This document shows, piece by piece, positions 3,445-59,822 of a stretch of 64,000 bases of DNA. Position 1 is the first letter of the stretch; each line of letters opens with the position of its first letter. Source of the stretch: a virus (taxonomy: Duplodnaviria; Caudoviricetes); IMG/VR virus record IMGVR_UViG_3300033066_001269, positions 3,426-67,425 of that record; one strand, 5' to 3'. Both the position numbers and the translations under genes were made by a program. The notes beneath the pieces are model-generated. The model worked only from the letters and a program-made list of their open reading frames with translations. It was not told where the DNA came from and did not search any database.

Positions 3445-3451
3445 GGAACTT

Positions 3452-3835: not shown

Positions 3836-3841
3836 TTATTC

Positions 3842-6150: not shown

Positions 6151-6181
6151 TCCCACCCGGGGACCACCCCGAGGAGAATCA

Positions 6182-12475: not shown

Positions 12476-12825
12476 GCGATCGCCTGGAAAAACGTTCGCT
12501 CAACCGGTCCGTCCGGTTCTCGCGGATTCGCCCGCAACCCCCGCGGCAAGTCGCAGTTACTACGACGATGGTCACCTGGAAGCCGCCGGCTGACCTGACC
12601 AACATTACCCATTTCCGCATCTATGCCAACGGGAATGCGGACACGAACCTTGCGCGCGAGGTTTCGGTAGGACAAAACGAAGTAGACCTGGTTGCTCAAT
12701 CCGCCTGGGTGAGCAGTTACAGCCTTACCGGGCAATCGGAGAGCGTTCGCGTCCGCGCGTCCGCCGCCGAGGACCTATCCCAGAACTCTGACACTAATCA
12801 GGGGATTATCGCCTACTATGCCTAA
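12472..12825 (+). CDS. Small tail protein with an FN3-like motif
   Basis: PQPPRQV...VTWKPPADLTNITHFRIY. Confidence 0.5.
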   Translation: MSDRLEKRSLNRSVRFSRIRPQPPRQVAVTTTMVTWKPPADLTNITHFRIYANGNADTNLAREVSVGQNEVDLVAQSAWVSSYSLTGQSESVRVRASAAEDLSQNSDTNQGIIAYYA

Positions 12826-16203: not shown

Positions 16204-17004
16204 ATGAAACTGAAGCTATTGATTGGCGCTCTGCTCTGCGGGGCGGCGTGGGCGCAGTTGCCGCAGGGGGTGGTGCAGGGGCAGCGGACGACATTTTCCC
16301 CGACCGCCGACAGCACCACGGCCATCCAGTTCAACAAAGCGGACGGCACCACCAACGTGCTGACGGTGGACACAACGAACTCGCGGTTGGGGATTGGGAC
16401 GGCGAGTCCGGGAGCACTGCTTGACGTTAATGGGGTCAGTTACTTCCGTTCGACTATCAGCCTGAACAACATCGCGTCGTTCAGCGGAAATGACATTGCA
16501 TTCCTAAACGGTGGGAAGGTGACAATGGCGGCATCTTCCGTCGGCATCGGACCCTCCAACACCTCTCCCACCGGCACTCTCCACGTCTACGACGCCACGG
16601 CGAGTACGGGGGTGACGAAGGTCACGGTGCGCGCGGGCGCGGGGCAGTCAACCACCAACCTGCAAGAGTGGCAGAATAACGCGGGGACAGTACAAGCGTC
16701 AATTTCTGCTGGAGGTTCGTACTTTGTTAACGGCGGCGCTTTGTACAATGGCAAAGTTGCTATTGGATATAACACAAGCGCGGAGCTGGTTTCAACATCA
16801 GACTCCTCTATCAAATGGGTCAGTACAACTAACCTTACAAATTCTTATGACCTCGGCCTAGCCCGCAACGCCGCTGGGGTGCTCCGCGTAACTGACGGCA
16901 GCACTGGCACCGCCATCATCGTCACCAAGTTGCCAACCTCTTGCTCTGGATTGGTTACCGGGACCTTGTACAACAATTCCGGAACTGCCGCATTTTGCCC
17001 ATAG
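16204..17004 (+). CDS. Tail-fibre-like beta protein with a Sec signal peptide
   Basis: MKLKLLIGALLCGAAWA|Q; fibre motifs RLGIGTASPGALLDV, NLQEWQN, DLGLARNAAGVL; terminal Cys pair. Confidence 0.65.
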   Translation: MKLKLLIGALLCGAAWAQLPQGVVQGQRTTFSPTADSTTAIQFNKADGTTNVLTVDTTNSRLGIGTASPGALLDVNGVSYFRSTISLNNIASFSGNDIAFLNGGKVTMAASSVGIGPSNTSPTGTLHVYDATASTGVTKVTVRAGAGQSTTNLQEWQNNAGTVQASISAGGSYFVNGGALYNGKVAIGYNTSAELVSTSDSSIKWVSTTNLTNSYDLGLARNAAGVLRVTDGSTGTAIIVTKLPTSCSGLVTGTLYNNSGTAAFCP

Positions 17005-17026
17005 GCTGCCGCATTTTGCCCATAGG
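16985..17026. repeat. Perfect 21-bp tandem duplication CTGCCGCATTTTGCCCATAGG x2
   Basis: Copies at 16985-17005 and 17006-17026, read directly. Confidence 0.95.
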
Positions 17027-17035
17027 AGGATTTTT

Positions 17036-17542
17036 ATGACTCGACTAATTTGTCTCTTTCTCGTGAGCCTCGCCGCATTCGGCCAGGCGCTCCCATCTTG
17101 CACTAGCGATTCCGTCAGCGTGACCGACATGGCGGCGGGCAAGTGCTCCTGCCCTGCGGCGCAACCCGGCGTGCAAACCACGGCCACCTTCGTATGGACA
17201 GGTGGGCAAGGACAGTTCACCATCCCCGTCAACGCTAGCGGAGTCTTTAATTGGTTCTCCAGCAAGCAGTGCCACAAGTACGGCATCTTCTGGTCGCTGG
17301 ACCAAGACGGCAAGCCCGTCCCGGTAGCCAAGCTCCCGCAACCCCAGTGGGCACTCAACATGTTTTCGATGCACTTCCAAGAGTCGCTGATTAAGCCGCT
17401 CAACGCGCTCTGCAAAGAGGACGACTCCTGTAAATCAAACCTACCTGACTTAGCGACGGCAGCAGAGCAGAAGAAAGCAGCGGAAGCGGCGGAAGCGGCC
17501 AAGGCGGCGCAGGCGGCAGCGGAGGCGCTACAGCCCAAATGA
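17036..17542 (+). CDS. Secreted Cys-rich hypothetical protein
   Basis: Signal peptide MTRLICLFLVSLAAFG|Q; six Cys in the mature part; SD AGGAGG. Confidence 0.7.
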   Translation: MTRLICLFLVSLAAFGQALPSCTSDSVSVTDMAAGKCSCPAAQPGVQTTATFVWTGGQGQFTIPVNASGVFNWFSSKQCHKYGIFWSLDQDGKPVPVAKLPQPQWALNMFSMHFQESLIKPLNALCKEDDSCKSNLPDLATAAEQKKAAEAAEAAKAAQAAAEALQPK

Positions 17543-17865
17543 AACACCTAATTTTATTCATTCTCCTGGCGTCGATCGCTTTCGGCGAAGAGAAGCCGCC
17601 CACCAAAGAAGTAAAAGGCGAAGCGGCGCTCACCGTCCTCATGCTGCACTACCAGGCGGCTCCGCTTAGGGCGGAACTGGACCGCACGGCTCCGCTTAGG
17701 GCGGAACTGGACCGCCTCAACGCGGAGATGAAAGACGCGATCGACGTGGTTTGCAAGAAGTCTAATGCTGGGCCCAATTGCCGCATCGCCACGGCGGACC
17801 CAAGGACCCGAACAGTCACTATCACCTGGGATTCTCCCAAAGGAAAGGATACCACCCCCAAATGA
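17539..17865 (+). CDS. Secreted small coiled-coil protein with a Cys pair (paralog of 33319-33633)
   Basis: MKHLILFILLASIAFG|EE; C-terminal VCKKSNAGPNCRI...TITW. Confidence 0.7.
   Translation: MKHLILFILLASIAFGEEKPPTKEVKGEAALTVLMLHYQAAPLRAELDRTAPLRAELDRLNAEMKDAIDVVCKKSNAGPNCRIATADPRTRTVTITWDSPKGKDTTPK
17657..17715. repeat. In-frame tandem repeat, period 30 bp (APLRAELDR twice)
   Basis: CGGCTCCGCTTAGGGCGGAACTGGACCGC at 17657-17685 and 17687-17715. Confidence 0.9.
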
Positions 17866-18488
17866 TGCTTCGCATCCTTGCCGCACTTTCCCTGTTCGCC
17901 GTCATGGCGAGCGCAACCGAATACCGTTACGTCATCACCGGGAACGACGGCGACGATCAAGACGAAATCCTGATCGTGGACACCGAGTCCCCCGACTTCC
18001 GCGCCCGCGTAGATTGGATCAGCGAGCGGGCCGGCCTGGTCTCGCCGCGGAAGGCGCGGGACTACATGAACCACGCGCCGGCCGTGGCCAATGCGAATCC
18101 GCTGCCCGGTACCGACGTTCCCTTGATCTGGGGACAGATGTGCTGGCAGAAGGAAGGCAAGGAGGCATGTGTCGACGTGCAGCGCATCGCCACCGGCGAC
18201 TACGGACCGATGCACGCGCTGGCGTGGCTGAATCTGTCGTTAGGGCTAGGGAAGGACCAGGACGCAATCTCCCACCTGCGCTATACTCCTCCGAAGCCTC
18301 CAGAGGCGGCAAAGGATTGTCAGGCTCCGGGGGCTCCGCTCACCTGCGATGAGATCCGCGCAGGTACATTCTCGACCGCGAACTCCGGCAAGAAGGTGGG
18401 CGATACTTGGACGGGGCCGAGCGGCGCGACTTACAAACTCACGAACATCGGAGGATTCTTCTACTACGGGGCGTGGGTGAGGCAGTAA
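17862..18488 (+). CDS. Secreted hypothetical protein with Cys pairs
   Basis: Likely start ATG 17862 overlapping the upstream stop; MMLRILAALSLFAVMASA|TE; two Cys pairs. Confidence 0.65.
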   Translation: MMLRILAALSLFAVMASATEYRYVITGNDGDDQDEILIVDTESPDFRARVDWISERAGLVSPRKARDYMNHAPAVANANPLPGTDVPLIWGQMCWQKEGKEACVDVQRIATGDYGPMHALAWLNLSLGLGKDQDAISHLRYTPPKPPEAAKDCQAPGAPLTCDEIRAGTFSTANSGKKVGDTWTGPSGATYKLTNIGGFFYYGAWVRQ

Positions 18489-18715
18489 TGGACCCCGTTC
18501 AGATCACACTCGCCCTGGAGACCGCCAAAGCGGGGTTCGAGTTCGGTACCGAGGTCATGAAGTTCCTCGCCACCGAGCAGGGGCAGAAGGTGGTGGAGAA
18601 GTCACTGGCGGACCGCGCCGAATGGGACCAGCGGTGGGCCAAATTCGGGAAGCAAATCGAGGATGCTTTTGCCGCTCTCGGTCACGCCGTCCAGCAGATG
18701 GGAGCGGCGAAGTGA
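18488..18715 (+). CDS. Hypothetical 75-aa helical protein
   Basis: ATG at 18488 overlapping the upstream TAA. Confidence 0.6.
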   Translation: MDPVQITLALETAKAGFEFGTEVMKFLATEQGQKVVEKSLADRAEWDQRWAKFGKQIEDAFAALGHAVQQMGAAK

Positions 18716-19380
18716 GGACGACTCCTCTCTGGGAGCATGGGGTCTTGGCTCTTTGCCTGAGCCTCGCTCTCTCCGCGGCCGCCCTCAGCGTCTCCGCCAT
18801 CAAATTCCTAGACGTTGCGACGAAAGAGATCGAGGGAACGCACGAAGAGGTCCGCATAGCCGTCCAGAAAAGCTATAAAGACCTGCACAGCGAGGCGGAG
18901 GGACTGCGGAAGATCCTGGAGAATCTTCAGTCCGGGGTAAACGCGGAACTCAAGGGAACCCGAGAAGGCGTCTTCAAGATCGCTGACGGCCGGCTCAAGG
19001 AAGTGACGCAACCGTTGGGCGAGCAGATTGCCGCCGTAGGCAAGGGCGCGGCGGGCACGCTTCAGGAGTCCCAAGAGGCGATCAAGACCTACCGTCAATT
19101 GCCGATCAATCTGGCGGAATCCCCTTTCATGAGAGCGGCGCAGGGCGAGGTTCTCGGGAACTTGAGAAATGCTCGTCTTGGTACCGCCCGACTCGACAGG
19201 GCTATGAACCCCATCATCGCCGACGTAAAGCGTGGCGGTGATGCGGCCGCCGACGTGGCGGTGAGCATCCGGGAAATGACGACCAGCGTCACCGCTAGCC
19301 TGACCGAGCAGGCGAAGCGGCCGCCCTGGTACGTCCGTTGGTTTCTATGGAGGCGCACGAATGCGAAAACGGCTCAGTGA
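18712..19380 (+). CDS. N-terminal TM plus long coiled-coil protein, spanin-like
   Basis: GTGA overlap; TM VLALCLSLALSAAALSVSAI followed by an extended helical region. Confidence 0.45.
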   Translation: MRTTPLWEHGVLALCLSLALSAAALSVSAIKFLDVATKEIEGTHEEVRIAVQKSYKDLHSEAEGLRKILENLQSGVNAELKGTREGVFKIADGRLKEVTQPLGEQIAAVGKGAAGTLQESQEAIKTYRQLPINLAESPFMRAAQGEVLGNLRNARLGTARLDRAMNPIIADVKRGGDAAADVAVSIREMTTSVTASLTEQAKRPPWYVRWFLWRRTNAKTAQ

Positions 19381-19525
19381 AGCGAGCTGGAAAACAACTA
19401 TCGCCGGAGTCGTTGCACTCGCGGCGGTCATCGGCGCCATTCTCGAGCCCGCCCAGGCGGACAAGTTCTTAGCCCTGGCAGGGGCCTCCAGCGCGGCGAT
19501 TGGAATCTTCGCCAAGGACCACTGA
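19361..19525 (+). CDS. Putative holin-like two-TM protein (54 aa)
   Basis: SD GGAGG; MRKRLSEASWKTTIAGVVALAAVIGAIL...LALAGASSAAIGIFAKDH; not in the ORF track. Confidence 0.6.
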   Translation: MRKRLSEASWKTTIAGVVALAAVIGAILEPAQADKFLALAGASSAAIGIFAKDH

Positions 19526-19569
19526 GGATGCGCCGTCGTGCGCAAAGCGATGTCAGCGGGAGGAACCCC

Positions 19570-19890
19570 ATGCCCGCAGAGATAAACGAGGTGCTATCGG
19601 TGAACACCCCGCAACCTGGAGAGTCTGGGTACGCGCTCCTGGCGCGAATCGACGAGCGGACCAAGAACATTGAAAAGTCCTTCGATGACCTGAAAAAGGA
19701 AATCAAGGACCGGATTGACGGACAAGACAAGCGAATCGACGAACTAGCCAAGCGATTCGGAGCAAGACTAGACCGAATCGAGAGACAGGAGGCATACCAG
19801 TCTGGAAAACAGGTGGGCATTGCCTTCGCGGTAACCACAGCGGCTTCCGCAATGAAGTGGGCCTATGACGTATGGATGGCTCACAAGTAA
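19570..19890 (+). CDS. Coiled-coil protein with a C-terminal TM (lysis-cassette associated)
   Basis: RIDERTKNIE coiled coil, then GIAFAVTTAASAMKW. Confidence 0.55.
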   Translation: MPAEINEVLSVNTPQPGESGYALLARIDERTKNIEKSFDDLKKEIKDRIDGQDKRIDELAKRFGARLDRIERQEAYQSGKQVGIAFAVTTAASAMKWAYDVWMAHK

Positions 19891-19904
19891 CGAGGTAACC
19901 AACT

Positions 19905-21539
19905 ATGTCCTTTTGGGGGATGTCCCAAACGGGTAAAGACGCGCAGGGAAAACTAGCGGAGATTCCGAACTGGCAATGGCAGCAGGCGAAGGACTGGTGG
20001 GATACCAGCAAGGCCAAGCTCCCGGTCGCTGACTACCTCCAGAACCAGTACATCGACCGGCTGACGAACGCCTATAACGAAGGGTTCGGCTCGCCCGAGG
20101 ACATCCGTGGCATCGGACGGTCCATCATGCCGGGAGTGGACGAAATGATGGCAAACCGGCGCGCCCGGGATGCCAACGTTCGCGCGTCTGCCAGCAATAT
20201 CCCCGGCGCCTCGGCGGTGGTCGACCAGTTGAACGGCATCACCGACGCCTCCGGCCGCAACGTGACCGATACGGCGGACATGAACCGCGGGCAGATCAAT
20301 GACACCTCCGGGCGCATGGCCGCACGGGGGGACTCCACCAGCCGGCAAGTCGTCGGCAACATTGGGGACACTTACGACGCCGCGGCCAATAACTCCCTGG
20401 ATACTTTCGGCAATATGCGGAAGGGAGCGTCCGGGGTCTATGGGCAAATTGGCAGTGACATCCAGGGCACGTACGGCGATCTCGCCGGCAAGACCGGATC
20501 CACCTTCGACCAGACGGACAAGCTCATTGACCGGCTGAACCCGAACGGCTCGCTTCGCGGGGCCACGACCGCCCGCGCATTTGCTCCGGAATTAGCCGCT
20601 ACCGCCGCTCGCTTGCGGCGCGCTGGTGTGGACACCGGGTCGCTCGAAGGGAATACGGCCATGCAACGGGTAGAGAACGCCCGCGCCCGCGCCATGGATG
20701 ACAATTACGCCGACGCCAACACGCAGTTCGTCGGAGCCAAGTCCGCGAATCTGCGAGACCGGCTCGCCGCCGATACCAACCTGGCGCAAAGCAGGCTGAC
20801 AGCATCGAACGCAGCCAAACAAGCTGGCCTGAACACCGACCTCAGTCTGGGCCAGAACAGCGAGGCGGCCCAGCGCGGGATGACACTGAACAAGGGCAAG
20901 GACTTCCGGGACGAACTGATCCGCGGCAGCGCCGAACAGCAGGCGATTGATAGAGCCCGCCTGGGAGACACGATAGACGTTAACAACCGGGAAGCCGCCG
21001 GGACCGCGGACTACCTGAACCAGCGCCGGTCTGATGTTGGCGCCGGACGCCAACTCGCGATCGACGATATGAGCATCCAGCGGGGGCTCAATCAGGACGA
21101 CAACGCCACCGACCTCACCGGGACGCAACTGAGCCAAGCGCAGTACGACCAGGGCGTCCAGCAGCGAGCCCGCGAAATGCAGGCGAAGAATGCGGCCGCC
21201 GCGGCCGCCGGCCAAGTGGGCAACAACGTCTGGGGACAGGCCACGCAAGCGAGTCAGATGGGCGGCAACTACGCCGGAGCCGCGCAGCGTGGGTACGACG
21301 ACGTCTATCAGCGGGAAGCCGCGAATGCAGGGTGGGGGACGAAGCTCCTTGGCGGGCTGGCTCTCGGCGCCGCGGGCATGATTCCCGGAGTCGGACCTAT
21401 CATCCAGGGCGCGGGGCGCGGTCTGGGGATTGGGAGCGGCGGAACAGGAGGCGGAGGCGGAGGCGGATGGGGAAATATCTTCAAGACCTCACAGACGTGG
21501 AAAAACCCGTACGGCGATGGCTTTGGAGGTGGAGGGTAA
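19905..21539 (+). CDS. Putative DNA ejection / internal virion protein
   Basis: 544 aa rich in A/G/N/Q/D and helical; hydrophobic Gly-rich C-terminus like podovirus ejection proteins. Confidence 0.6.
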   Translation: MSFWGMSQTGKDAQGKLAEIPNWQWQQAKDWWDTSKAKLPVADYLQNQYIDRLTNAYNEGFGSPEDIRGIGRSIMPGVDEMMANRRARDANVRASASNIPGASAVVDQLNGITDASGRNVTDTADMNRGQINDTSGRMAARGDSTSRQVVGNIGDTYDAAANNSLDTFGNMRKGASGVYGQIGSDIQGTYGDLAGKTGSTFDQTDKLIDRLNPNGSLRGATTARAFAPELAATAARLRRAGVDTGSLEGNTAMQRVENARARAMDDNYADANTQFVGAKSANLRDRLAADTNLAQSRLTASNAAKQAGLNTDLSLGQNSEAAQRGMTLNKGKDFRDELIRGSAEQQAIDRARLGDTIDVNNREAAGTADYLNQRRSDVGAGRQLAIDDMSIQRGLNQDDNATDLTGTQLSQAQYDQGVQQRAREMQAKNAAAAAAGQVGNNVWGQATQASQMGGNYAGAAQRGYDDVYQREAANAGWGTKLLGGLALGAAGMIPGVGPIIQGAGRGLGIGSGGTGGGGGGGWGNIFKTSQTWKNPYGDGFGGGG

Positions 21540-21542
21540 AAC

Positions 21543-22901
21543 ATGGCGTTCGGACAACTGCTCATTGATCCGCGGTTCGTTCTGCAGAACCAGCAAGCCC
21601 AGATCGGGGGATTCGCCCCTCCGCCCTTGCTTCCTAGCCTCATCGGTAGCTTCGACCCCGGCGAAGTAGGGTACGGAGCGCAGCAGGCTCAATCCGCGCC
21701 CGAGGACTGGGAACCGCAGGCGGCAGCGCCCGAAGCCATGCCGCACTCTGGCGACATCCAGATCGACACCGTTGCTCCCCCGCCCACTCGCTCTCGCTCG
21801 AAGACGGGCTCCAAGCGCGATTGGCGCACTGGCGTAGGGGACATGATTGATGCGGCGGTCTCGGCGGTCGCGACGCCGAACATTGCCGGCGGCGGCGCCA
21901 CTGATATCGCCCGCGGCATGATGTCAGCGCGCGGCACGATGCAGCAGAACCGAGCGCTCCGCCAACAGCAGATCGACCGGCAGATTGAGCAGCAACGGCG
22001 GCAGGAACTCGCGGACGCCGAGATGCTTCTTCGCCAGAAGCAAATGCAGGCGGCGATGCCGCGCCCCGAGGAGATGGTGGAGATTGACGCCGACCTCGCG
22101 CGCCGTGCGGGGGTAGCCGTCCCACTGGGGCAAACGACCGTCAAATTGCCGAAGGCGATCGCCCAGCCGATTGTCAGTTACAACCGGCCCAAGGGAAACA
22201 AGGGAGCCGGGGCAGACAAGCCGACGGAGCCCGAAATCGTTGCTTCGCGCGTGCAGATTGCGACGACCTTGGGGCTCAAGCCGGGAACGGAAGAGTTCAA
22301 TACCTACACGCTCACAGGCAAACTGCCGACGCGACCAGCGCAAGCGCCCAAGCCCACCGAAGAGCAGGTCCGCACCGAAAGGGCTAGAGCCGCGCTCCAG
22401 TTAGGGCTGAAGGAAGGAACCCGCGACTTTCAGGAGTATGTGCTTACCGGCAAACTCCCGAAGCCGGAGAAGCCGCCCGCCGGCCAAGGTACCCAACAGG
22501 CCCGCCTCGCCCTCGAGACGCGGAAGTACGAGGAAGGGAAACAGGACAAGCAGAACGAGCGGCGGGAGAAGGAACTCCTCCAACTGGACGCCGAAGAGAA
22601 CGGATCCGGTAAGGCGGAAGGTCTCCACTCCATTCGAATGCGAATCGGCGAGGAACTCAAAACAAAGCCGCCCACCCCTGAACTGATCGCGCAGTACAAC
22701 TCCGCGAATGCCCGTCTCCGCGCCGTCTATAAGCGAAAGCTCGACCTTGGCGCCATCTCTCCGCAGCAATACCAGCAGTACACCAGCCAACTGAAGGACA
22801 TCGGCGGGGCAGCCCCCGCACAACCTGCGCCCGCCCCCGCGCAGCCCGCTGTCTACGGAACCTACGTCCCTGGGAAAGGAGTAGTCACTTCCGCCAAATA
22901 G
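21543..22901 (+). CDS. Putative DNA ejection / internal virion protein
   Basis: Coiled coils and two LGLK.GT..F..Y.LTGKLP repeats; between ejection-type genes. Confidence 0.55.
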   Translation: MAFGQLLIDPRFVLQNQQAQIGGFAPPPLLPSLIGSFDPGEVGYGAQQAQSAPEDWEPQAAAPEAMPHSGDIQIDTVAPPPTRSRSKTGSKRDWRTGVGDMIDAAVSAVATPNIAGGGATDIARGMMSARGTMQQNRALRQQQIDRQIEQQRRQELADAEMLLRQKQMQAAMPRPEEMVEIDADLARRAGVAVPLGQTTVKLPKAIAQPIVSYNRPKGNKGAGADKPTEPEIVASRVQIATTLGLKPGTEEFNTYTLTGKLPTRPAQAPKPTEEQVRTERARAALQLGLKEGTRDFQEYVLTGKLPKPEKPPAGQGTQQARLALETRKYEEGKQDKQNERREKELLQLDAEENGSGKAEGLHSIRMRIGEELKTKPPTPELIAQYNSANARLRAVYKRKLDLGAISPQQYQQYTSQLKDIGGAAPAQPAPAPAQPAVYGTYVPGKGVVTSAK

Positions 22902-22904
22902 TGC

Positions 22905-22971
22905 AAAAAATATTCCAAAAAATATTCCTATACAAATCATGAACTTACATCAAAAAGACCCGTCTTTTTGA
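22905..22971. promoter_or_regulatory. AT-rich spacer with a 12-bp tandem repeat and an inverted repeat
   Basis: AAAAAATATTCC x2 (22905-22928); TCAAAAAGA-CCCG-TCTTTTTGA (22950-22971). Confidence 0.55.
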
Positions 22972-22989
22972 CCTGCCCCCCTACCTAAA

Positions 22990-32850: not shown

Positions 32851-32860
32851 AGAGGTCCCC

Positions 32861-33322
32861 ATGAAAATCCTGATTCTTGGGCTGCTCGCCATCGCGGCGC
32901 ACGCAGTCGAATACACCATTGTCAGCGACGTTACGGGCACATCGAACGTCGTCACCATCCAACAAGACCCGAACGCTACGCCCAAGGTGGTGGCGGGAGT
33001 GGAGGCCGGCGTTGCGGTCGACGGAGCCTGTACGGTTACGATCGAACGGAGTGGGACGGCGGCCACGGCAACGGCGGGCACGCTGAACCCCGTGGTCTCC
33101 ACTTCGTCCACGGCCGCGGTGAAGGTGTACACCGGCTCCGACGTGGGGACGGGAACGGTGCTTTCCAAAATAAAGCTGACCTCGGCCGGGTTCGCCCGGT
33201 TCCCCCTGTCCTCGATTCGGCTGGCTGCGATCAAGGACGCAACGCAGAACTTTACCGTGCGCGTCGCCTGCGCATCCAGCCAGAACAGCATCATCAACCT
33301 CAAGGTGGACGAACTGAAGTGA
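32861..33322 (+). CDS. Secreted beta-sandwich-like hypothetical protein
   Basis: Signal peptide MKILILGLLAIAAHA|VE; two Cys; SD GAGG. Confidence 0.7.
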   Translation: MKILILGLLAIAAHAVEYTIVSDVTGTSNVVTIQQDPNATPKVVAGVEAGVAVDGACTVTIERSGTAATATAGTLNPVVSTSSTAAVKVYTGSDVGTGTVLSKIKLTSAGFARFPLSSIRLAAIKDATQNFTVRVACASSQNSIINLKVDELK

Positions 33323-33633
33323 CCCTCAAGCACATTGCCATAGCCGCTTTCTTGTCGGCGGCCCTCTCCCAGGCGGACCAGCAGCCCGCCGCGCCGGATA
33401 CGCCGCCCGCGATTGTTTCCAAGCCGCTCACTCCGTCCCAGGCGGACGCGCTCAAGATCTATCTGCTTCAGGTGAAGAACCGGAACCTCGAGATTCAATT
33501 CCTCAGCGCGGAGATCGCGGCGCTGGGACGAGATCAGCGAGATCGCGTGGCGGCGTGGTGTAAGGAGGCTGGCGGTAAGGATTGCGCGATCGACTTAGCG
33601 CGAGGTGCTTTGACGTGGCCCGAATCCAAGTAA
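33319..33633 (+). CDS. Secreted small coiled-coil protein with a Cys pair (paralog of 17539-17865)
   Basis: MTLKHIAIAAFLSAALSQA|D; C-terminal WCKEAGGKDCAI...LTW. Confidence 0.7.
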   Translation: MTLKHIAIAAFLSAALSQADQQPAAPDTPPAIVSKPLTPSQADALKIYLLQVKNRNLEIQFLSAEIAALGRDQRDRVAAWCKEAGGKDCAIDLARGALTWPESK

Positions 33634-35624
33634 TTGCCTTTCTATTTCCCGCGCTACTGGCGGCGCAGCCCTCGCTGACGACGATCAGTGAAACTCTCTT
33701 CGCCCCGGACGGAAGCCGTTACAACGGGGCCGTCTACACGGAGTTGGCGGCAAAGTGCACTGCTCCTCCGGGATCGAACTATATCGGCGCTGGCAAGGGA
33801 AAGATCCTCGTCAATAACGGCGTCCTGGCGACACAGTTGGTGCCTAACACCAGTTGCACGCCGGTGACGAAATACAAGGTGAAGTATGACCTTGTGACAA
33901 AGACCGGGCTTTCTCTGCGGTATGACACTTACTGGACGGTGGGAGTCTCGGCGAATCCGGTAACGGTGAGTTTCATCGAAACCGGCGATGCTCCGCCCGC
34001 GCCGGAGACCACCCTGAACGCTTCGTTACTGGTCGGGTGCACGACCGGGCAAACCCTTCGCCACAACGGCAGCAACTTTGCGTGCGTGCCGATGGCGACG
34101 ACACCCACGGCATCCGCGGCTCCGTTCTCTGACGCAGCGGGGAAACTGGCGGCCGGTTGGCTCTCGGAAGTATTGTCCTTGTCGGACCTCTCGGACGTCA
34201 CCGCCATCCGCGGAAGCACCACGACGGTGCAGATGGCGAGCGGATCCACCACGACCGGGCATTGTGCCCAGTTCGACGCCTCGGGAAACCTGGTGGACTC
34301 CGGCGATGCCTGCGGCGGTTCTGGCGGATCGCCCACGTCCATCAGTTGGGGGTCGATCACCGGCATGGTGGGGAACCAGACCGACCTCGCCGCGCTGCTC
34401 AACGCGAAGGAATCTACGGTTAGCAAGAACATCGCCAACGGCTACGAGGGCTTGACGGCGAGCACTAAGCTCCAACTGGCGCATGGGCAAGAGGTATGGA
34501 GCCTTTCTGACCTTGCCGACGTCGCGGGCAAGCAGGGAAACAGTACCACCGTCCAGATGGGGACCGGCGCCTATGTGGTCAACCATTGCGCCAAGTTCGA
34601 CGCCAACGGCAACATCGTGGACGCGGGGGCTGACTGCGGGACGGGCAGCGGCGCCGCTACGTGGGGCTCGATCACCGGCATGGTGGGCAATCAGACGGAC
34701 TTAGTGGCCCTCTTGAACGCCAAAGAGTCGACCGTCAATAAGAACGTGAGCTACGCCGGGCTCTCGGGCGGCAAACTGGCGCTCTCGCAAGGGCAGGAGG
34801 TATGGGCGCTGGCGGACCTCTCGGACGTCACCGCGATCCGCGGCAGTTCCACGACCGTTCAAATGGCCAGCGGGGCGGTCAGTACCGGAGACTGCCCGAA
34901 GTTTGACGCTTCAGGGAATCTCGTCTCGGCCGGCTTCTCCTGCGCGTCCGCGTTCCAGGTGACCTCGGCGAAGGATCAGGCCAATGGGTATGCGGGGCTG
35001 TCTGGCTCCAGTAAGATCACGGCATCCCAGGTACAAGAGGTCTTGGCCTTGGCTGACCTGTCGGACGTAGGTTCCAAGCGCGGTACCTCGACGCAGGTGC
35101 AGATGACGACCGGCAGCGTCACCACGAACAACTGCGCCAAGTTTGACGTGAACGGCAACCTGGTCGACGCCGGAACTACCTGCGGGGGCGGAGGCGGGGG
35201 TGGCAGCCCGCCGGGGTCCGATGGCGACATCGCCGGAAACATTGGAGGGTCCTGGACGGGAATTACTCCCGAGCGCGGCATCGAGATCATCGACGTGAGC
35301 GGGGCGAAGAAACTCCGCGTCAAGGACAGCACGGCTCCGTCCCATGGTTACGGAACGGGCAACGTGAACTTCTCCAACCTGTCCACGGGCGGGTGTTCCA
35401 CGGCAGTAGAGGCGGGCGCAAACACGATCACCGTCAGCCCAGCGACCACGGGGGAAGTCGCGATCGTCGGCGGACCCTCGAGCGCTTCCATCCCGACGGG
35501 AGCATGGGTGGGGGGCACGGTCACGGCGACCAACACCGTCTCGCTCTATGTCTGCAACTTCACCGGCAGCAACCTGAACTTGGCCGATTTGACGTACACC
35601 GTATGGGTTCCAAAAAAGTACTAA
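33615..35624 (+). CDS. Tail-fibre-like repeat protein with a signal peptide
   Basis: GTG 33615 with SD GAGGTG; MARIQVIAFLFPALLAA|QP; four repeats of about 60 aa, each with CxxFDxxGN..C. Confidence 0.7.
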   Translation: MARIQVIAFLFPALLAAQPSLTTISETLFAPDGSRYNGAVYTELAAKCTAPPGSNYIGAGKGKILVNNGVLATQLVPNTSCTPVTKYKVKYDLVTKTGLSLRYDTYWTVGVSANPVTVSFIETGDAPPAPETTLNASLLVGCTTGQTLRHNGSNFACVPMATTPTASAAPFSDAAGKLAAGWLSEVLSLSDLSDVTAIRGSTTTVQMASGSTTTGHCAQFDASGNLVDSGDACGGSGGSPTSISWGSITGMVGNQTDLAALLNAKESTVSKNIANGYEGLTASTKLQLAHGQEVWSLSDLADVAGKQGNSTTVQMGTGAYVVNHCAKFDANGNIVDAGADCGTGSGAATWGSITGMVGNQTDLVALLNAKESTVNKNVSYAGLSGGKLALSQGQEVWALADLSDVTAIRGSSTTVQMASGAVSTGDCPKFDASGNLVSAGFSCASAFQVTSAKDQANGYAGLSGSSKITASQVQEVLALADLSDVGSKRGTSTQVQMTTGSVTTNNCAKFDVNGNLVDAGTTCGGGGGGGSPPGSDGDIAGNIGGSWTGITPERGIEIIDVSGAKKLRVKDSTAPSHGYGTGNVNFSNLSTGGCSTAVEAGANTITVSPATTGEVAIVGGPSSASIPTGAWVGGTVTATNTVSLYVCNFTGSNLNLADLTYTVWVPKKY

Positions 35625-38600
35625 ATTTCGCGTTTTTCGCATTCCTCGCCCCGTTTTTCGCATTTTTCGCATTTCCCCTCGCCGCGGCGCCGGATGGGAA
35701 CGCCATCCTGATCGGGTCCGCGACGGCACAAACCGGCCGCCCCGTCGAGTGGAGCCGCAACTTTCCCGTTTCGGGACCGCTCTCCATTTGCGAGTACCCC
35801 AAGCCCTTCCTCCATGGCGTCGCTTTCCCGAAGTGGCAGGCGAACGTGAAGACTCGCTGGCCCGCGTCGACCGCTTGCCCGGGCGGTGCAGTGCAACAGG
35901 CGCACTTCTGGATTTACACGACAATCGGGGCCGGAGCGCAACAGGAGATCGACTTCCGCGAGTCCTCCGTCTCTTGTGAAGGGGGAACATGCGGCGTCCC
36001 GATGAGCCAGAGCGCCATTCAGAACCACATGGGCGGGGCGTGGGGGGCGAGTATTGACGCTGTGGCCCGCCCGGTTGGTTCCACCACCCTGCGAAGCGTG
36101 GACGCCCGGGCACTCATCGCGGCTGGCAATTACACCGTCCGGTATGCGGGCCCAGTGGCGACGCAAATCGTGGTGGAGGACGTCAGCACCAACCTCGCCT
36201 CGGACTTTGGATGGCATGATGCAGGCTCCGCGGAACTCCTCTCGACGATCCAGCCAACCGACACGACCCTCAATATTGAAGCGCCTCACTGGGCGAACCT
36301 GGGGCGGCCATTCACGGTCACGATGGAGGGCGAGAAAATCTCTATCTGCCATGTGGATGGACCCGGAAAAAAGATGTACGTCGGCACCACCAATGGATCA
36401 GACCCGACGTGCGCCAACGTGGCCGGCCGCGGCATAGGCGGCACGACGGCGGCGCTCCATTATTGGAGCGGCTGGGGACGGCCCGTTTTCCTCACGCAGT
36501 CCATCTATCTCACCGCGGCGATCAACGCTTACACGGAGCAGCTTCCTCTGAGTGACGCTTCTTCGATCATCGCCCCGACCGTGCTGCAGGTGGGCAATGA
36601 GAAGATTCGCGTCTGCAATAAGACCGGGAACCTCGTCACGATCGGGACGGGCAACTGGGGATGTTCTTACGACGCGAATGGACGAACTTACTACGGCACC
36701 AACATCGTGACAGACCGGAATTGGGCGCAATACACGCCCGTCCGGGACTGGTCGAACTCTTCGACGATCTGGACCGATGCCGCGGCGGCCTATCAGAAGA
36801 GTCTCCATCTCACCTTCGTGATTACGATCTTCCCCGACTGGGCCGGAGTCGGAATCGAGTACCTTGTCTCAAATACCTGGGACCGGGCGCAGGACCAGGA
36901 GTACGACATCACGTTCTACCGCGGGCCGATGGCGTCGCGGACGCAGGTGGTGACCAAGACGCACGTTCGCCATGTCGCCAATAGCTTCTACCGCATCCCT
37001 GATAATCCGATGAGTTACACGGGACGGGAGGCGGACCGCAAGATCTGGGACGGGGCGCTCCCTGCGGCGCTCACCTGGGATTTCAATCTTCCGTATCTCG
37101 CCAGCACGCGCATCATCCCGGTAGACCACACAGTGCGTCCCAGCCAGACGGCGGTGACGGGCGTCAATACGACGTGGGAGGCGTCCACGAAGTGTCAGGT
37201 GGAGGTGGGGTCCGTGGTAGCAGCCAACCGCGATTACTTCGGGCCGCTGGCGCGCAACTTTGAGGGCGGCGGTACGCGCGGCGAGATTGGCCTGTTCCTT
37301 GATGCCGACCTCATCGCTCTCGGAGCGGCCGGAAGCGGGCTGACCTACTCCGAGAATTGGGCGAAGTGGGTCTTTGGCTCGGCGGGCTGCACCAGCCTCA
37401 TCCCTGCTTACTTCCGGGAGCGGGGAACGTCTGGAACGTTCTGCGCGGCTACCGAATCGTCCTCGGCTCCCACCACCAAGACTTGCACAGGGGCGAACCT
37501 CACTGCGGCGGCCTTCGGGCGCTATCTGTCGATCGACAATCGGCCGGGACTCTCGTATATCAACGCGCAGGGGAATGCTACGGATATGATTCAGCCCGTC
37601 GGGTGGCTGAGTTACAACTACATCAATGTGGGAGATAGTTTCTCTCACTGGCCCGCGACCAGTTATGTGGCCTACGTTCTCTCGGATGACCTGTATTACG
37701 AGCGGGCGATCCAGGGCGTTGGCGCGTTTGTTCTCATCCAGGGGCCCTTCCCCGGATGGAATCCGAGTCACTCGCCCTATATCCAGGCCGGGACCGTCTT
37801 CCGGAAAGGAAGCTGGGGCATCCTGGTTCCTTTTTCGGCCTCCGATCGTCAAGTGGCGTGGATGACCCGTGGATTATTCTGGGCGTGGTACGCCTCCGCT
37901 GACGGGACGCCGGAGAAGGAGTACTTCCGCCATAAGCTCAAGATGAATGCGGCGGTCCGGCAAGGGCAATGCGGCATCACGAAGGGGGCGCTCTACGTGC
38001 CGGGGTCCGGCGGGGATCCGGATGACTATTCCCCTTGGCGCTGGGGCCGGCGCGTCGTCGGGTTCAACGATACCCGATTCCCCACCATGTGCAGCGGCAC
38101 GCAAGCCGTTGCCGGATACAACACAGAGCCCACTTATGTGGACCAGACGCATGTCTATACGCTTCAGTCCTGGTGGATGATCTACTATCTGTACGTTTCG
38201 GAAATGCTGGCACTCGACAACGGCATTACCGAGTTCCAATATGTCGCGGAGGCTCACGGGGAGTGGTTCCGAAACCTCATCCTGAATCCTGCGGTTAAGA
38301 ATCATTTCGTAGTGGATTTGTTCCGCTCGCCCCACATCCCTTGCCAGGGAGAGACGACCACCTTCGCCTCCGGGTGCGCGGGGCAAAACCTCAATTCACT
38401 CGAGACGCCGGGGACGGAATACCTCTATTCGTCGTGGGCCAACTTCTACGACTATGGGTTCACCCAAGCGGCCAAGGACCGGACGGGGTTCGACACCGAC
38501 ACATTTGCCGGCGGCGGCCGCGCCCGGGTGGCGTATGGGACCGCGGCGCTCCAAGCCTGTCTCGCCGAGGATGGACGAGCGGCCTTCCGCTGGATCCGCA

Positions 38601-41600
38601 CCAACATCAAGTACGGCGCGCTCTGGGCTGATAACCCGCAATGGCTGTTCGCTCCCTGTTACTGGTTCCAGTTGTCGATGCAGCGGACGTTCCTCTCGGC
38701 GACACGGGCGAAGATCCGGATCATCCGGCCGGAGATCCCAGCGGACTGCAGTTATCAGGTCTCCACCACGCCGATCACCGATAGCCGCAGCGTGGAGGAC
38801 GTGCCGATTAATGACCCGACGGGGCTCCAGGAAATCGAACTCGACTTGTCGGCAGTGCCGGGGACGACCAATTACGTGCGGGCGACATGCGCGCAGGCAA
38901 AGGCGGCAATCTCCTTCACCGCGCCGGATTCGAGCTTAGGAAGCCTCGCGCTTCCGCCCCTGACGGCGTTCAACGTGACGAGCGGTAACATCGCCAACCG
39001 TCAGGACCTCGCCGTGCTTCTCTCTCAATACGTGGTCCCCGCGGGCTCGCCAACCGCGCCGGGAGACACCTTTGCGCCGAGTCTGACGGGATCCACCGTC
39101 AGCACGGCGCCACTGTTGGGAGCCGCCACCTACCAAGCGAACGCGGACCGGACGATCTCTCTCCAGGGCGGTCAGTTTACCCGCCGCTCGAGCGCTTCGA
39201 AGTACTCGGATACCGCGGTCTGGATGTATGCGCAGACCACCTCCGGGAACGCACAACTCGTCCAGTTACCTACGCTGCGGGAGGACGACACCTCCGCGGC
39301 GGCGACTCTTCCCAGCACGGCGCCGTACGGCATGTACCTTGTCTGGGCGCAGAACGAGGACGGCTACAGCAAGCCCGTCCGCATCAATGCGACGGAAAGC
39401 TGGTGGATGGGTCCGACGTATGGCGTGGCGGGAGGATCTGCTTCCATCTACGGCCGCAACCTGACCTACCAGAACGGCGAGGCGACCAGTTACGTGTATC
39501 TCCGCGCCTGGAATACGAGTGGCTCTCTCACCGCCCTGACGGTTACCCGCGCCACCCCGCACAAGGTCACCTTCGCCATCCCCTCCGTCTCCGCCGGCGA
39601 CTACGAAGTCTGGATCCACAACGGGCACGGCGGCGCTTACGGGTGGTCCGGCCCGCATAAGCTGACGGTGGACGCCTCCGCGCGCTACACCTGGGGCGGC
39701 ACTACTCGCAACGTGACCAGTTACGGCGCCATCGCCAACGACGCAGGGGACGACACATCCGCCATCAATGCGGCGATTTCCGCGGCGAGCAATGGCGACA
39801 TCATCTATTTTCCCGCCGGCCGCTATATCGTCACCACCACCATTTACACCAACAAGGCGCTGTCCTTTGAGGGGGTTTCGCGTACAGCCAGCATCCTGGA
39901 GGGGTCCGTCACGATGACCTCACAGACGGCCGTATTCCAACTGGCGGGATTCCCGAGCCGGGTGAAGAACCTCGGCTTCGACTCCAAAACAACGGACCTC
40001 TATAACAACGGGGGCGTGGTCTTCTTCAACGGCAGCAATAAGGCTCCGTCGAACAATGGCGCCGTCGTCGACAACGTGGCGGTGACAACGCCTTCGGGGA
40101 CGACGTACACCGCGATCGGCGCGGACTACCTGAACGACATCCAGGTCACGAACACCACCATCACCGCGGCGGAAGGGTTGTACGCTACCCGCTGTTTCCA
40201 GGTCTTCTTCCAGGGCAATACGATGCGCGGCAATTGGCCCGACAACCAATACGCTGGCCAGGGCATGGTCACGCTGGAAGCGAGTAACGAGGCCGACGTC
40301 AGCGGCAACGATGCGGCGAGCTTCAATATGAGCGCCAGCCCGAAACAAATGTTGGCCCGCTTGTTCATCGCGCAGGGCCACGGGCACGGGAGCACGGGGC
40401 TCCATTACGTCGCGGAGAACACCGGGCGGAATCTTGGCTGCACCACGTACACTTGCGGCGAAGAGATCCTCTTTGAGACGCCAGGAGTGTACTGGGTGGG
40501 CACGGGAACGATGTCCGATTCCACCACCCTCAATACGGCCGCCTCATTCACCGCGAATTACTATGCGGCATTGAGCCGGTCCGTCTACTCCTCCTACGGC
40601 TCCCGGAAGCCCGCACTGCTCTTTATCCAGAGCGGGAAAGGGGCGGGGCAGTGGCGGCGAATTCTCTCGAATACTACGACAGATGTAGTGATCGAGCGGG
40701 CCTGGGACGTGGCTCCGGATGGGACCTCGACCTTCGCCATCATTACAGCCGGCCACCAGGCGGCAGTCTGGAAGAACGACCTTCAGGGCGTGCTGCCCAG
40801 CTTCGCCGGCACCAACATCGGCGTCGCGGCCTATGGCTCCGTGTTTGATTTGTCCATCATCCGGAACACCATCAGTAACATCCCCCGCGGCATCGAGTTA
40901 TCGGGACTGACGTACTCCTCGTGTGCAGCGTCGGGCGGTCCCACCACAACCGACTTCTGCCCGGTTTGGGGCGTCCTGGTCGCGGGTAATACCATCTCGA
41001 ACGTCGGCGCCGGCATCGCGGCATACACCCGCCGGGAGTCGCCGAACGGCTCACTGGGTGAAGTGCTTCGCCAGGTGGTCATCCGCGATAACACCATCAC
41101 TGGAGTGATCACCGGGCAGGGGCAGGGCACTTCCCACGAGGCCGGCATCGTGGTCTCTGACGCCAACGGGGAGCAGTCCTCGACGCCCTGGCAGGTGGGG
41201 ACCGTTCTCGAGCGCAACACCATCACGGACGCCAAGAACTCCATCATCCTTGGCGGGCTGACGGCCGGCATCCCGATCCGTCGGAACTCTCTCATCAATG
41301 CGGGGCTGTACTCTGATTCGAACGGGTTCCTGTTCCAGAACGCGAACGTGGCGGACTCGCTCCTCTACGGCAACATCTATCGGGGGCTGGCCACCAGCTA
41401 CGCCGGCAGCTACCAGCCGGGGTCCGCTCTCCGCCTGTTCAATCGGAACATCGCTTTTGGCGGCGGCGGGACGGCCCAGGTCACCATCTACAACACTGGG
41501 ACATCCGCCTTTACCCCTGCGGCATCTTCAGCCAACGGTTGGTTGACGTACCTTGCCCTTCCAGGGTCTCTCGCCGCGGACAGCATGAGCACGTTCACCG

Positions 41601-41713
41601 CGAAAGGTAGCGTCAGCGGGCTCAGCACCGGCAGTTACAGCAGCACCCTGACCATCTCCGGCGCGACAAAGACCTCTCCCCAGGCAGCGGCGGCCACCAT
41701 CACAGCGCCCTAA
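35603..41713 (+). CDS. About 2036-aa secreted multidomain protein with a polysaccharide-lyase-like beta-helix
   Basis: Likely start ATG 35603; signal ...FAFFAFPLAAA|P; NVTSYGAIANDAGDDTSAINAAI pectate-lyase-3-like motif, beta-helix repeats, Ig-like C-terminus. Confidence 0.75.
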   Translation: MGSKKVLNFAFFAFLAPFFAFFAFPLAAAPDGNAILIGSATAQTGRPVEWSRNFPVSGPLSICEYPKPFLHGVAFPKWQANVKTRWPASTACPGGAVQQAHFWIYTTIGAGAQQEIDFRESSVSCEGGTCGVPMSQSAIQNHMGGAWGASIDAVARPVGSTTLRSVDARALIAAGNYTVRYAGPVATQIVVEDVSTNLASDFGWHDAGSAELLSTIQPTDTTLNIEAPHWANLGRPFTVTMEGEKISICHVDGPGKKMYVGTTNGSDPTCANVAGRGIGGTTAALHYWSGWGRPVFLTQSIYLTAAINAYTEQLPLSDASSIIAPTVLQVGNEKIRVCNKTGNLVTIGTGNWGCSYDANGRTYYGTNIVTDRNWAQYTPVRDWSNSSTIWTDAAAAYQKSLHLTFVITIFPDWAGVGIEYLVSNTWDRAQDQEYDITFYRGPMASRTQVVTKTHVRHVANSFYRIPDNPMSYTGREADRKIWDGALPAALTWDFNLPYLASTRIIPVDHTVRPSQTAVTGVNTTWEASTKCQVEVGSVVAANRDYFGPLARNFEGGGTRGEIGLFLDADLIALGAAGSGLTYSENWAKWVFGSAGCTSLIPAYFRERGTSGTFCAATESSSAPTTKTCTGANLTAAAFGRYLSIDNRPGLSYINAQGNATDMIQPVGWLSYNYINVGDSFSHWPATSYVAYVLSDDLYYERAIQGVGAFVLIQGPFPGWNPSHSPYIQAGTVFRKGSWGILVPFSASDRQVAWMTRGLFWAWYASADGTPEKEYFRHKLKMNAAVRQGQCGITKGALYVPGSGGDPDDYSPWRWGRRVVGFNDTRFPTMCSGTQAVAGYNTEPTYVDQTHVYTLQSWWMIYYLYVSEMLALDNGITEFQYVAEAHGEWFRNLILNPAVKNHFVVDLFRSPHIPCQGETTTFASGCAGQNLNSLETPGTEYLYSSWANFYDYGFTQAAKDRTGFDTDTFAGGGRARVAYGTAALQACLAEDGRAAFRWIRTNIKYGALWADNPQWLFAPCYWFQLSMQRTFLSATRAKIRIIRPEIPADCSYQVSTTPITDSRSVEDVPINDPTGLQEIELDLSAVPGTTNYVRATCAQAKAAISFTAPDSSLGSLALPPLTAFNVTSGNIANRQDLAVLLSQYVVPAGSPTAPGDTFAPSLTGSTVSTAPLLGAATYQANADRTISLQGGQFTRRSSASKYSDTAVWMYAQTTSGNAQLVQLPTLREDDTSAAATLPSTAPYGMYLVWAQNEDGYSKPVRINATESWWMGPTYGVAGGSASIYGRNLTYQNGEATSYVYLRAWNTSGSLTALTVTRATPHKVTFAIPSVSAGDYEVWIHNGHGGAYGWSGPHKLTVDASARYTWGGTTRNVTSYGAIANDAGDDTSAINAAISAASNGDIIYFPAGRYIVTTTIYTNKALSFEGVSRTASILEGSVTMTSQTAVFQLAGFPSRVKNLGFDSKTTDLYNNGGVVFFNGSNKAPSNNGAVVDNVAVTTPSGTTYTAIGADYLNDIQVTNTTITAAEGLYATRCFQVFFQGNTMRGNWPDNQYAGQGMVTLEASNEADVSGNDAASFNMSASPKQMLARLFIAQGHGHGSTGLHYVAENTGRNLGCTTYTCGEEILFETPGVYWVGTGTMSDSTTLNTAASFTANYYAALSRSVYSSYGSRKPALLFIQSGKGAGQWRRILSNTTTDVVIERAWDVAPDGTSTFAIITAGHQAAVWKNDLQGVLPSFAGTNIGVAAYGSVFDLSIIRNTISNIPRGIELSGLTYSSCAASGGPTTTDFCPVWGVLVAGNTISNVGAGIAAYTRRESPNGSLGEVLRQVVIRDNTITGVITGQGQGTSHEAGIVVSDANGEQSSTPWQVGTVLERNTITDAKNSIILGGLTAGIPIRRNSLINAGLYSDSNGFLFQNANVADSLLYGNIYRGLATSYAGSYQPGSALRLFNRNIAFGGGGTAQVTIYNTGTSAFTPAASSANGWLTYLALPGSLAADSMSTFTAKGSVSGLSTGSYSSTLTISGATKTSPQAAAATITAP

Positions 41714-43877: not shown

Positions 43878-43931
43878 ATGACCACTGCTTCCCCGCTACT
43901 CCTATCATTGACCAATAAGGAGGTCAATGAT

Positions 43932-59649: not shown

Positions 59650-59822
59650 CGCCATCTCGCTATCAATACAACCGGAGATACAAAGGGCAGTGCGAGAACC
59701 CGGGCTGCAAAGCTCCGTTCGAGTCTCCGAACCCGAATCAGAAGGTATGTGGATTGCACGCCTGTAAGCTGTGGGCGGACCGGAAGAGAGACCAGCGGAG
59801 AAGGCGGAAGAGGAAGCCTTAG
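59646..59822 (+). CDS. 58-aa Zn-finger protein with a basic tail
   Basis: CENPGC...CGLHAC then RRRRKRK; ATGA overlap; not in the ORF track. Confidence 0.55.
   Translation: MTPSRYQYNRRYKGQCENPGCKAPFESPNPNQKVCGLHACKLWADRKRDQRRRRKRKP

Follow-up and report, generated by a model that had tools for sequence, protein, structure and literature searches.

The DNA analyzed here is a window of 64,000 nucleotides (64 kb; positions 3,426 to 67,425 of the IMG/VR virus record IMGVR_UViG_3300033066_001269), which is part of a stand-alone viral contig of 67,425 bp with a G+C content of approximately 61%. Unless a related genome or locus is named, positions refer to this window. Its late region contains eight genes on the plus strand whose products start with signal peptide-like N-termini. 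The genes form two runs of four adjacent genes (16204–18488 and 32861–41713), in which neighboring genes are separated by 3 to 31 nt or overlap by 4 to 22 nt. Both four-gene blocks are translationally coupled and located inside the late operon. The combined cost of the eight genes is about 11 kb, corresponding to 16% of the genome.

The first run begins with the gene of a fibre-like protein of 266 amino acids (16204–17004). Its signal is predicted to be cleaved at about AWA/Q, and the mature protein contains two Cys residues (positions 247 and 265). The second gene encodes a Cys-rich protein of 168 amino acids (17036–17542; signal AFG/Q, six mature Cys) with an Ala/Glu/Lys-rich tail and is preceded by a strong ribosome-binding site. 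It is followed by the genes of a 108-amino-acid protein (17539–17865; AFG/EE) with a coiled coil-like repeat and a C-x8-C pair, and of a 208-amino-acid protein (17862–18488; ASA/TE) with two C-x8-C pairs. The end of this fourth gene had been placed at 18352 in an earlier reading of the same DNA made without database searches (referred to as the sequence-only reading) and is corrected here. The second run starts with the first gene 3' of a large polyvalent protein gene. It encodes a 153-amino-acid protein with two Cys (32861–33322; AHA/VE), a 104-amino-acid protein with a GTG start, a coiled coil-like stretch, and a C-x7-C pair (33319–33633; SQA/DQ), and a fibre-like protein of 669 amino acids (33615–35624; GTG start, LAA/QP), which contains five Cys-pair repeats and a C-terminal, Cys-bridged, knob-like domain. 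The last gene (35603–41713) encodes a giant protein of 2036 amino acids with a long, Phe-rich signal core ending in AAA/P, a host-type module, and a phage-specific half with a beta-helix. The proteins are named below by the start position of their genes. The products of 17539 and 33319 are alike in architecture, but the homology is not significant (E 0.15), and no significant paralogy between the two clusters was detected in an all-against-all BLAST. The five small proteins matched no Pfam or PHROG family up to E 0.1, and an Atlas search with 17862 gave no usable match.

N-terminal signals, cysteine content, and fibre likeness

Signals were judged by a simple rule for the n-, h-, and c-regions (basic n-region, uncharged hydrophobic core, small residues at −3/−1) in combination with conservation. 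Applied to all 62 called open reading frames (ORFs), the rule selected exactly the eight genes and one weak false positive at 57394, confirming the two clusters of signal-like N-termini that had been described before. In all eight proteins, a positively charged n-region is followed by an uncharged hydrophobic core, which comprises about 8 to 15 residues in all but 35603 (about 24 residues), and the −3 and −1 positions of all cleavage sites given above are occupied by small residues. Tat export was rejected, since no RR-x-F-L twin-arginine motif was found by eye. Lipoproteins were rejected likewise for want of a canonical L-[AS]-[GA]-C lipobox; the sequence LPSC in 17036 is borderline. The reading frames of all eight genes are supported by the G+C content at third codon positions (GC3). 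The first in-frame start is the signal-coding start in five of the eight ORFs, and clear Shine–Dalgarno-like sequences precede three genes (AGGAGG before 17036, AAAGAGG before 32861, GAGGTG before 33615).

The signals are conserved in distant homologues. For 33615, the rule recognized signals in 33 of 52 homologues (more by eye), and for 16204 in 42 of 91. At the end of the core, a small-x-small motif followed by Gln is found in 60 of 95 signal-positive relatives, compared to 5.7% of background 14-mers, an eleven-fold enrichment. A "Q rule" is known for Bacteroidetes, and Gln-exposing cleavage has been noted on genes of Porphyromonas phages (PMC10367356).

The Cys content of the eight proteins differs from that of the other late proteins (1.59% vs. 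0.49%, Mann–Whitney p = 0.0007), with 1.1% to 4.2% in the individual exported proteins. The mature forms contain 2, 6, 2, 4, 2, 2, 14, and 25 Cys in gene order, an even number in seven of eight, and closely spaced pairs are present in seven of the eight proteins, in agreement with the paired Cys that the sequence-only reading had reported for most of them. Two ejection-type proteins and the polyvalent protein, in contrast, contain not a single Cys in 4282 residues; the scaffold, the adaptor, and a 117-amino-acid tail protein (12472) are likewise Cys-free.

The N-termini might also not be working signals, being chance or structural hydrophobic leaders, or the true starts might be located downstream of the hydrophobic segments. 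The atypically long core of 35603 and the Pro after its AAA site, which is unfavorable for cleavage, would fit such a view. However, no clearly better-placed downstream start was seen for any of the eight ORFs, exactly eight of 62 ORFs qualify and these are clustered, Cys is enriched with mostly even mature counts, and the signals recur in distant homologues as well as in bacterial copies (see below). Because of the conserved signals, the specificity of the rule, and the enrichment of the Gln motif, chance or untranslated leaders are very improbable. The eight proteins are, with high probability, exported by means of Sec signals of the signal peptidase I type.

Fibre or depolymerase likeness, which had been claimed for three of the proteins, is indicated for each of the three larger ones. 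Residues 1369–1517 of 35603 form a predicted pectate lyase-type beta-helix (Pfam, E = 1.4e-11), and the C-terminal half of the protein matches the solved polysaccharide lyase 9ozd (PDB, E = 1.9e-7). The host-type module (residues ~10–1100) consists of a beta-rich, a helical, and an FN3-like part, in this order. A profile of this N-terminal module yielded only a marginal FN3 match among PDB sequences, and an AlphaFold2 (AF2) model of residues 1–1100, built from 8 sequences, reached a predicted local distance difference test score (pLDDT) of 36.5 and was not used for a fold search. In 33615, a weak PHROG tail match (7e-5) was detected. Its Cys-pair repeats have a spacing of 15–16, the pairs C217/C233, C325/C341, and C594/C647 are invariant in the homologue alignment, and the repeats are also present in signal-less fibre-like proteins. 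For 16204, an AF2 model with a pLDDT of 71 was obtained, which is similar to predicted fibre proteins of phages (BFVD, E = 1.6e-5 to 1e-3). Its resemblance to solved structures is weak and local, the matches being the mosaic adhesive trimer (MAT) fibres of Bdellovibrio (Z 4.5, 46 residues) and streptococcal phage hyaluronidase fibres (Z at most 4.5). None of the three proteins had a match in 50,697 isolated-phage records.

Homologues in bacterial loci and related phages

A scan of one genome per prokaryote species using the fibre alignment yielded 22 loci, 19 of them from Acidobacteriota (Bryobacteraceae, Bryobacterales, Terriglobia, and others), two from metagenome-assembled genomes labeled as Arcobacter, and one from an unnamed organism. 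The contigs with the Arcobacter label (L002 and L019) carry the module of fibre and large protein described below and may be mis-binned. Of all phage proteins, only 33615, 35603, and 16204 match the 22 loci. No capsid, portal, or ejection protein matches there, and the loci are therefore not prophages. Homologues of 33615 and of 35603 (residues ~10–1100) are adjacent and in phage order in 11 loci, where a fibre-like protein of about 540 to 580 amino acids is followed by a protein of about 1000 to 1190 amino acids (for example L001 9755–15453 and L007 9275–14276). The matches reach E 1e-139 for 35603 and E 2e-25 for 33615. The identity of 35603 to the copies in L007, L008, and L011 is 31% to 33% over about 1137 amino acids; that of 33615 to the bacterial copies is 26% to 42% in the best segments over the C-terminal ~500 amino acids. 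The copies of 33615 examined all start with signals, as do nearly all of those of 35603.

The genes surrounding the bacterial copies encode GT4 transferases, Wzy_C/DUF5935, Polysacc_deac_1 plus DUF3473, Asn synthase, FemAB-like proteins, and UDP-glucose dehydrogenase, a set which we take to resemble exosortase-type exopolysaccharide loci. The phage and bacterial modules share gene order and signals on both proteins and are homologous. In contrast to the bacterial pair, which is situated among sugar-polymer synthesis genes and often has a gene for a 337-amino-acid membrane protein in between, the phage pair is located 3' of the polyvalent ejection protein gene and not among polysaccharide synthesis genes. 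The bacterial copies lack the 930-amino-acid beta-helix half of 35603, and the N-terminal ~160 amino acids of 33615 represent a different domain from that in the bacterial copies. The bacterial module matched no Pfam or NCBIfam family. Because syntenic, signal-bearing homologues exist in bacteria and no isolated-phage match was found, cluster 2 is, at least in part and as judged from sequence comparison, a phage copy of an exported host module, whose large protein appears to have gained a beta-helix half of about 930 amino acids in the phage.

The large module was present in 36 of 401 Bryobacterales genomes, and in none of these 401 did the capsid profile detect a prophage of this family; 401 further genomes of the phylum (802 in total) gave two weak matches. 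From the sharing of genes, the host is probably an acidobacterium similar to Bryobacterales. Some Bryobacterales genomes (G423, G655, G715, and G768) contain at least two copies of the exported module of ~1000 amino acids, and in L008 both copies (3279–6179 and 11736–15290) are located in a single exopolysaccharide locus.

The capsid protein belongs to the SU10_MCP family (Pfam, 2.7e-41). An SU10 adaptor, a nozzle-sized tail protein (10412–12475), two ejection-type proteins of 544 and 452 amino acids followed by the polyvalent protein of 3286 amino acids (together 19905–32850), and two separate tyrosine-recombinase genes (43878–45125 and, on the minus strand, 59819–60919, the second with Phage_integrase and SAM-like domains) are also encoded. 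This uncultured soil phage is therefore a temperate, short-tailed, SU10-type podophage. A phage with an internal membrane was rejected based on the HK97/SU10-type capsid and the terminase. The closest capsid among the isolated-phage records shares 27% identity, so that no near isolated relative was found. Scans with the single nozzle and capsid proteins revealed no relatives, and alignments were required to find them. At E < 1e-20, 220 capsid relatives were obtained, many of them on contigs of 64 to 68 kb.

Six related genomes or fragments were read: G001 (complete, 66,162 bp), G002, L024, L026/L028, L049, and L051. They share the split terminase, portal, capsid, head-module glycosyltransferase, adaptor, nozzle, an FN3-like protein, and the ejection proteins. 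Two slots are variable, one located 3' of the FN3-like protein (slot a) and one 3' of the ejection proteins (slot b). Most of the slot occupants have no sequence relation to each other, but textbook signals are present on nearly all of them: a beta-helix protein of 881 amino acids in L028, proteins of 913 and 681 amino acids in G002, of 1098 in L049, of 1248 in L051, and of 1087, 448, 733, 187, and 248 in G001. The slot proteins of the relatives are also rich in Cys (1.6% to 2.9%). Slot a is empty in L024, and its signal-less occupants are 12818 in the window and a 740-amino-acid protein in G001. The Gln at +1 was seen in 16204, 17036, 33319, and 33615 of the window, in the five relatives with signal-bearing slot proteins, and in acidobacterial homologues. 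No shared N-terminal module following the signal was found, neither among the eight proteins nor in comparison with the signal-bearing proteins of these five relatives.

Marine SU10-type phages (~30% capsid identity) served as controls. The rule flagged five of their 55 late ORFs of at least 250 amino acids, four of which represent one family of 363 amino acids, and none of the late proteins of 700 to 970 amino acids. The members of the ~363-amino-acid family (L091 15987–17078, L094 15656–16747, L109 15540–16649, and L111 15055–16146) have a signal-like end ..AAQ or ..IGQ followed by D. Because unrelated slot proteins of the clade bear signals, whereas the large marine proteins do not, the trait appears to be confined to this clade, with selection maintaining it on proteins unrelated to each other. 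The survey of related phages proposed earlier thus did reveal conserved signals, and the arrangement, proposed earlier as a candidate new system, is not limited to this phage but common to its clade.

The conventional tail equipment of the window is distinct from the eight genes. Immediately downstream of the nozzle gene, a signal-less, FN3-like tail protein of 117 amino acids is encoded (12472–12825, plus strand), which is kept at this position in all relatives read and is a probable "anchor" of fibres or spikes. Three forms of it were found: the short form of the window, a form of about 205 to 219 amino acids with an extra domain in L028, G002, L049, and L051, and a form fused to the N-terminus of the 740-amino-acid signal-less protein in G001 (coordinates of FN3-like forms: L049 15458–16087, L051 7157–7816, L028 15271–15888, L037 3892–4527, L032 1169–3391). 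The extra C-terminal domain of ~100 amino acids thus occurs in the relatives whose slot protein bears a signal, and it could itself be a receptor-binding tip. The argument that certain relatives are without any further receptor-binding protein is weaker for this reason. The next gene (12818–15997, plus strand) encodes a beta-helix tailspike of 1059 amino acids (Pfam Beta_helix, 1e-8). Its lack of a signal, already noticed in the sequence-only reading, was evident from both the rule and the translation. Beginning at residue 1, a stretch of ~130 residues can be aligned with at least 10 cluster representatives, which have other C-termini and no signal. On this evidence, 12818 appears to be a conventional signal-less receptor-binding protein with a conserved N-terminal module.

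Among the remaining features, the domains of the polyvalent protein are a methyltransferase, a Strawberry-notch helicase, and LPD38, and the window also encodes a replication module of the Prim-Pol/D5 type. The glycosyltransferase gene of the head module (9065–9772) has positional counterparts in G001 (49% identity) and G002 (43%) and probably in further relatives; given this conserved position, it is a core gene rather than cargo. A second glycosyltransferase of the head module (1586–2500) was not conserved in the comparison with G001 and G002.

Possible roles of the putatively exported late proteins

Sec export and oxidative folding of the eight proteins are well supported indirectly, because the signals are conserved in homologues, the pattern extends through the lineage, Cys is enriched, and the host homologues appear to be exported. 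As to their role, we tentatively prefer the view that the eight are exported late proteins, partly derived from the host, which act on envelope polysaccharide by binding or cutting, either in the periplasm or on the cell surface, and are not parts of the particle. They would leave the cytoplasm via the host Sec machinery and would be cleaved by signal peptidase I, often exposing Gln, and disulfide-assisted folding would follow in the periplasm of the acidobacterial, probably Bryobacterales-like, host. At least the two largest proteins would be phage copies of the two-gene module of exopolysaccharide loci. Late in infection, the proteins would bind and cut the envelope polysaccharide of their own cell from the periplasmic or the outer side, which may liberate new particles from slime and debris and eliminate receptors. 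Of the exported proteins, the small ones could be partners, folding helpers, or in part lysis proteins, and the tailspike of the particle itself would be the signal-less 12818. Such a non-virion, envelope-directed role is favored because a signal-less tailspike with a conserved N-terminal module is present and cluster 2 seems to be copied from a host exopolysaccharide module. As two of the eight proteins appear to be copies of exported host slime-locus proteins, action outside the cytoplasm, in which the particle assembles, is most likely.

Several observations weigh against this preference. Spending ~11 kb on proteins outside the virion would be costly, and large hypervariable proteins that occupy fixed late slots behave like receptor-binding genes. 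Annotated tail fibres of cyanophages and Ralstonia phages contain modules that are also present in the proteins, and one fibre N-terminal module of the 16204 family was seen both at a bare N-terminus and behind a signal. In L028, L049, L051, and G002, the gene right after the anchor bears a signal, and the start of this gene and the anchor stop overlap in L028 and L051, perhaps also in G002. A fibre-type module is common to the mature N-termini of the proteins of L049, L051, and G002, beyond which their sequences diverge. In addition, the host was assigned from shared genes, and the 802 acidobacterial genomes contained no prophage of this family beyond the two weak matches. Enzyme activity, substrate, and export of the eight proteins are predictions from sequence, and no known fold was recognized for the N-terminal module of 35603.

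Many of these points would suit the main alternative, in which the proteins are true virion receptor-binding proteins. After Sec export, folding and disulfide formation would take place in the periplasm, and docking on particles built in the cytoplasm would follow once the compartments are mixed by holin lesions or lysis; adaptors or periplasmic assembly chaperones would then be the roles of the small exported proteins. Besides the overlap with the anchor stop, the N-module shared by mature proteins with divergent remainders, which is a signature of receptor-binding proteins, the identical fibre module with or without signal, and the modules in common with annotated tail fibres, this is supported by the location of the genes inside the late operon and by the clade-wide trait, as both variable slots in G001, G002, L028, L049, and L051 are signal-bearing and the 700- to 970-amino-acid proteins of the marine relatives are not. 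However, no tailed phage described as doing so was found in the literature, and the window already encodes a signal-less tailspike with a conserved N-terminal module. The eight proteins have no common docking module behind the signal, the alignment of 33615 and 35603 with the host proteins starts at the signal and shows no additional N-terminal domain for virion binding, and the extra anchor domain in the relatives could serve as the tip. We consider docking of this kind unlikely, though not to a degree that would allow it to be neglected. Slightly more doubtful is its extended form, in which host-recognition proteins are exported, disulfide-bonded, and docked via the conserved anchor after a holin opens the inner membrane, this route having been enabled by the recruitment of the slime-processing proteins exported by the host.

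Lysis would provide a function for some of the small proteins, chiefly 17036, 17539, and 17862, as an exported or signal-anchored endolysin and spanin-like proteins, and is compatible with either role of the large proteins. No endolysin, holin, or spanin family was recognized by Pfam or PHROGs in the window ORFs scanned; the lysis genes must therefore be among the proteins without assignment. The products of 17539 and 33319 resemble i-spanins in layout, with a hydrophobic N-terminal segment, a coiled coil, and Cys, and cluster 1 is followed by genes for a transmembrane protein (18622–19380) and for a protein with a coiled coil (19528–19890), for which weak XhlA-like and TraF_2 matches were obtained. 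Against this stand the lack of any family match even at E 0.1, the occurrence of the coiled-coil Cys-pair type twice, once per cluster and adjoining a fibre-like gene, and N-termini which end in cleavage-type motifs instead of long anchors and contain no clear lipobox. Moreover, 16204, 33615, and 35603 would remain uncovered, and we regard a lysis function of these small proteins as improbable.

A still smaller chance is given to lysogenic conversion, that is, synthesis in the lysogen and display or secretion of the proteins for surface remodeling, such as superinfection exclusion, adhesion, or matrix turnover. It would be in line with a temperate phage possessing two tyrosine-recombinase genes and with host homologues in exopolysaccharide loci, and signal-bearing exclusion proteins encoded beside receptor-binding genes are known. 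The proteins would then be comparable to Lom and Bor of lambda or Llp of T5, whose genes are situated beside tail genes. The eight genes, however, are tightly packed inside the late operon, and their size (up to 2036 amino acids) and number far exceed those of known conversion genes. No promoter- or terminator-like sites above chance were detected in scans flanking the eight genes, although the sigma-70 consensus used may not be that of the host. Because of the translational coupling in the late operon and the missing promoter and terminator signals, this explanation is less likely. Both branches of the alternative formulated in the sequence-only reading, periplasmic fibres joining virions or a secreted or surface appendage, retain some probability, except for the part that invoked lysogenic conversion, which lost ground.

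What appears to be new is the synteny of 33615 and 35603 with host exopolysaccharide loci, the clade-wide signals in two variable slots, and the presence of a tailspike with a classical N-terminal module at the same time. A clade of soil phages provides nearly all of its variable fibre-like or sugar-cutting late proteins with export signals that look functional and with paired Cys. On the sober reading, these phages would acquire exported slime-locus proteins from Acidobacteriota, a phylum that is dominant in soil but has received little study, and use them outside the cytoplasm in the course of the lytic cycle. Host exopolysaccharide loci would then be worth inspecting for host prediction and depolymerase mining in soil phages, and genes annotated as "tail fibre" in these phages may encode proteins that are never on the particle. 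If docking after export is true, it would represent a new last step in the assembly of tailed phages.

Comparison with known systems

According to the current view, the assembly of tailed-phage particles is completed in the reducing cytoplasm. The canonical tailspikes and fibres of podoviruses (P22 gp9, T7 gp17, the SU10 fibres, and also 12818) resemble the large proteins described here in their beta-helix or fibre modules, which are predicted for the latter, their hypervariable C-termini, and the position of their genes after the nozzle or ejection genes. They differ in that they have no signal and contain a conserved N-terminal particle-binding module, whereas the eight proteins have signals and no common docking module. 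A description of signal peptides on receptor-binding proteins of tailed phages was not found in the literature. Cultured phages of Acidobacteriota (Tunturi) exist, and the corresponding paper contains no proteomics and does not mention signals (PMC11924767).

Host-adapted Sec signals on phage genes, as predicted here, have been reported in two other cases. Signals occur on 5% of the carbohydrate-active enzymes (CAZymes) of prophages (PMC13507307), and the second case is that of the Porphyromonas phage genes (PMC10367356). The two papers name neither tail fibre-like proteins nor proteins in tailspike position and no clade-wide pattern in a late operon.

The MAT fibres of Bdellovibrio bacteriovorus possess a signal, a constant N-domain directly behind it, and swappable tips and are displayed on the cell surface (PMC10769870; PDB 8ond, 8onc, 8oml). 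In contrast to the proteins studied here, they are encoded by a predatory bacterium, and the structural match is local and below a safe threshold. These trimeric proteins are, however, phage fibre-like and bear a signal, as do the candidate proteins of the window, and they provide the best, though weak, match of the 16204 model among solved structures. A further parallel is WceF of Pantoea stewartii, a glycanase with a tailspike fold, which is encoded in the stewartan biosynthesis cluster and exported by a cleavable signal (PMC7949094). WceF is a host protein with a Tat signal and no detected sequence relation to the eight proteins, whose putative signals are of the Sec type and whose genes belong to a phage late operon. 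The likeness lies in a protein similar to a phage tailspike that is encoded beside bacterial exopolysaccharide genes and acts on the polymer produced by them.

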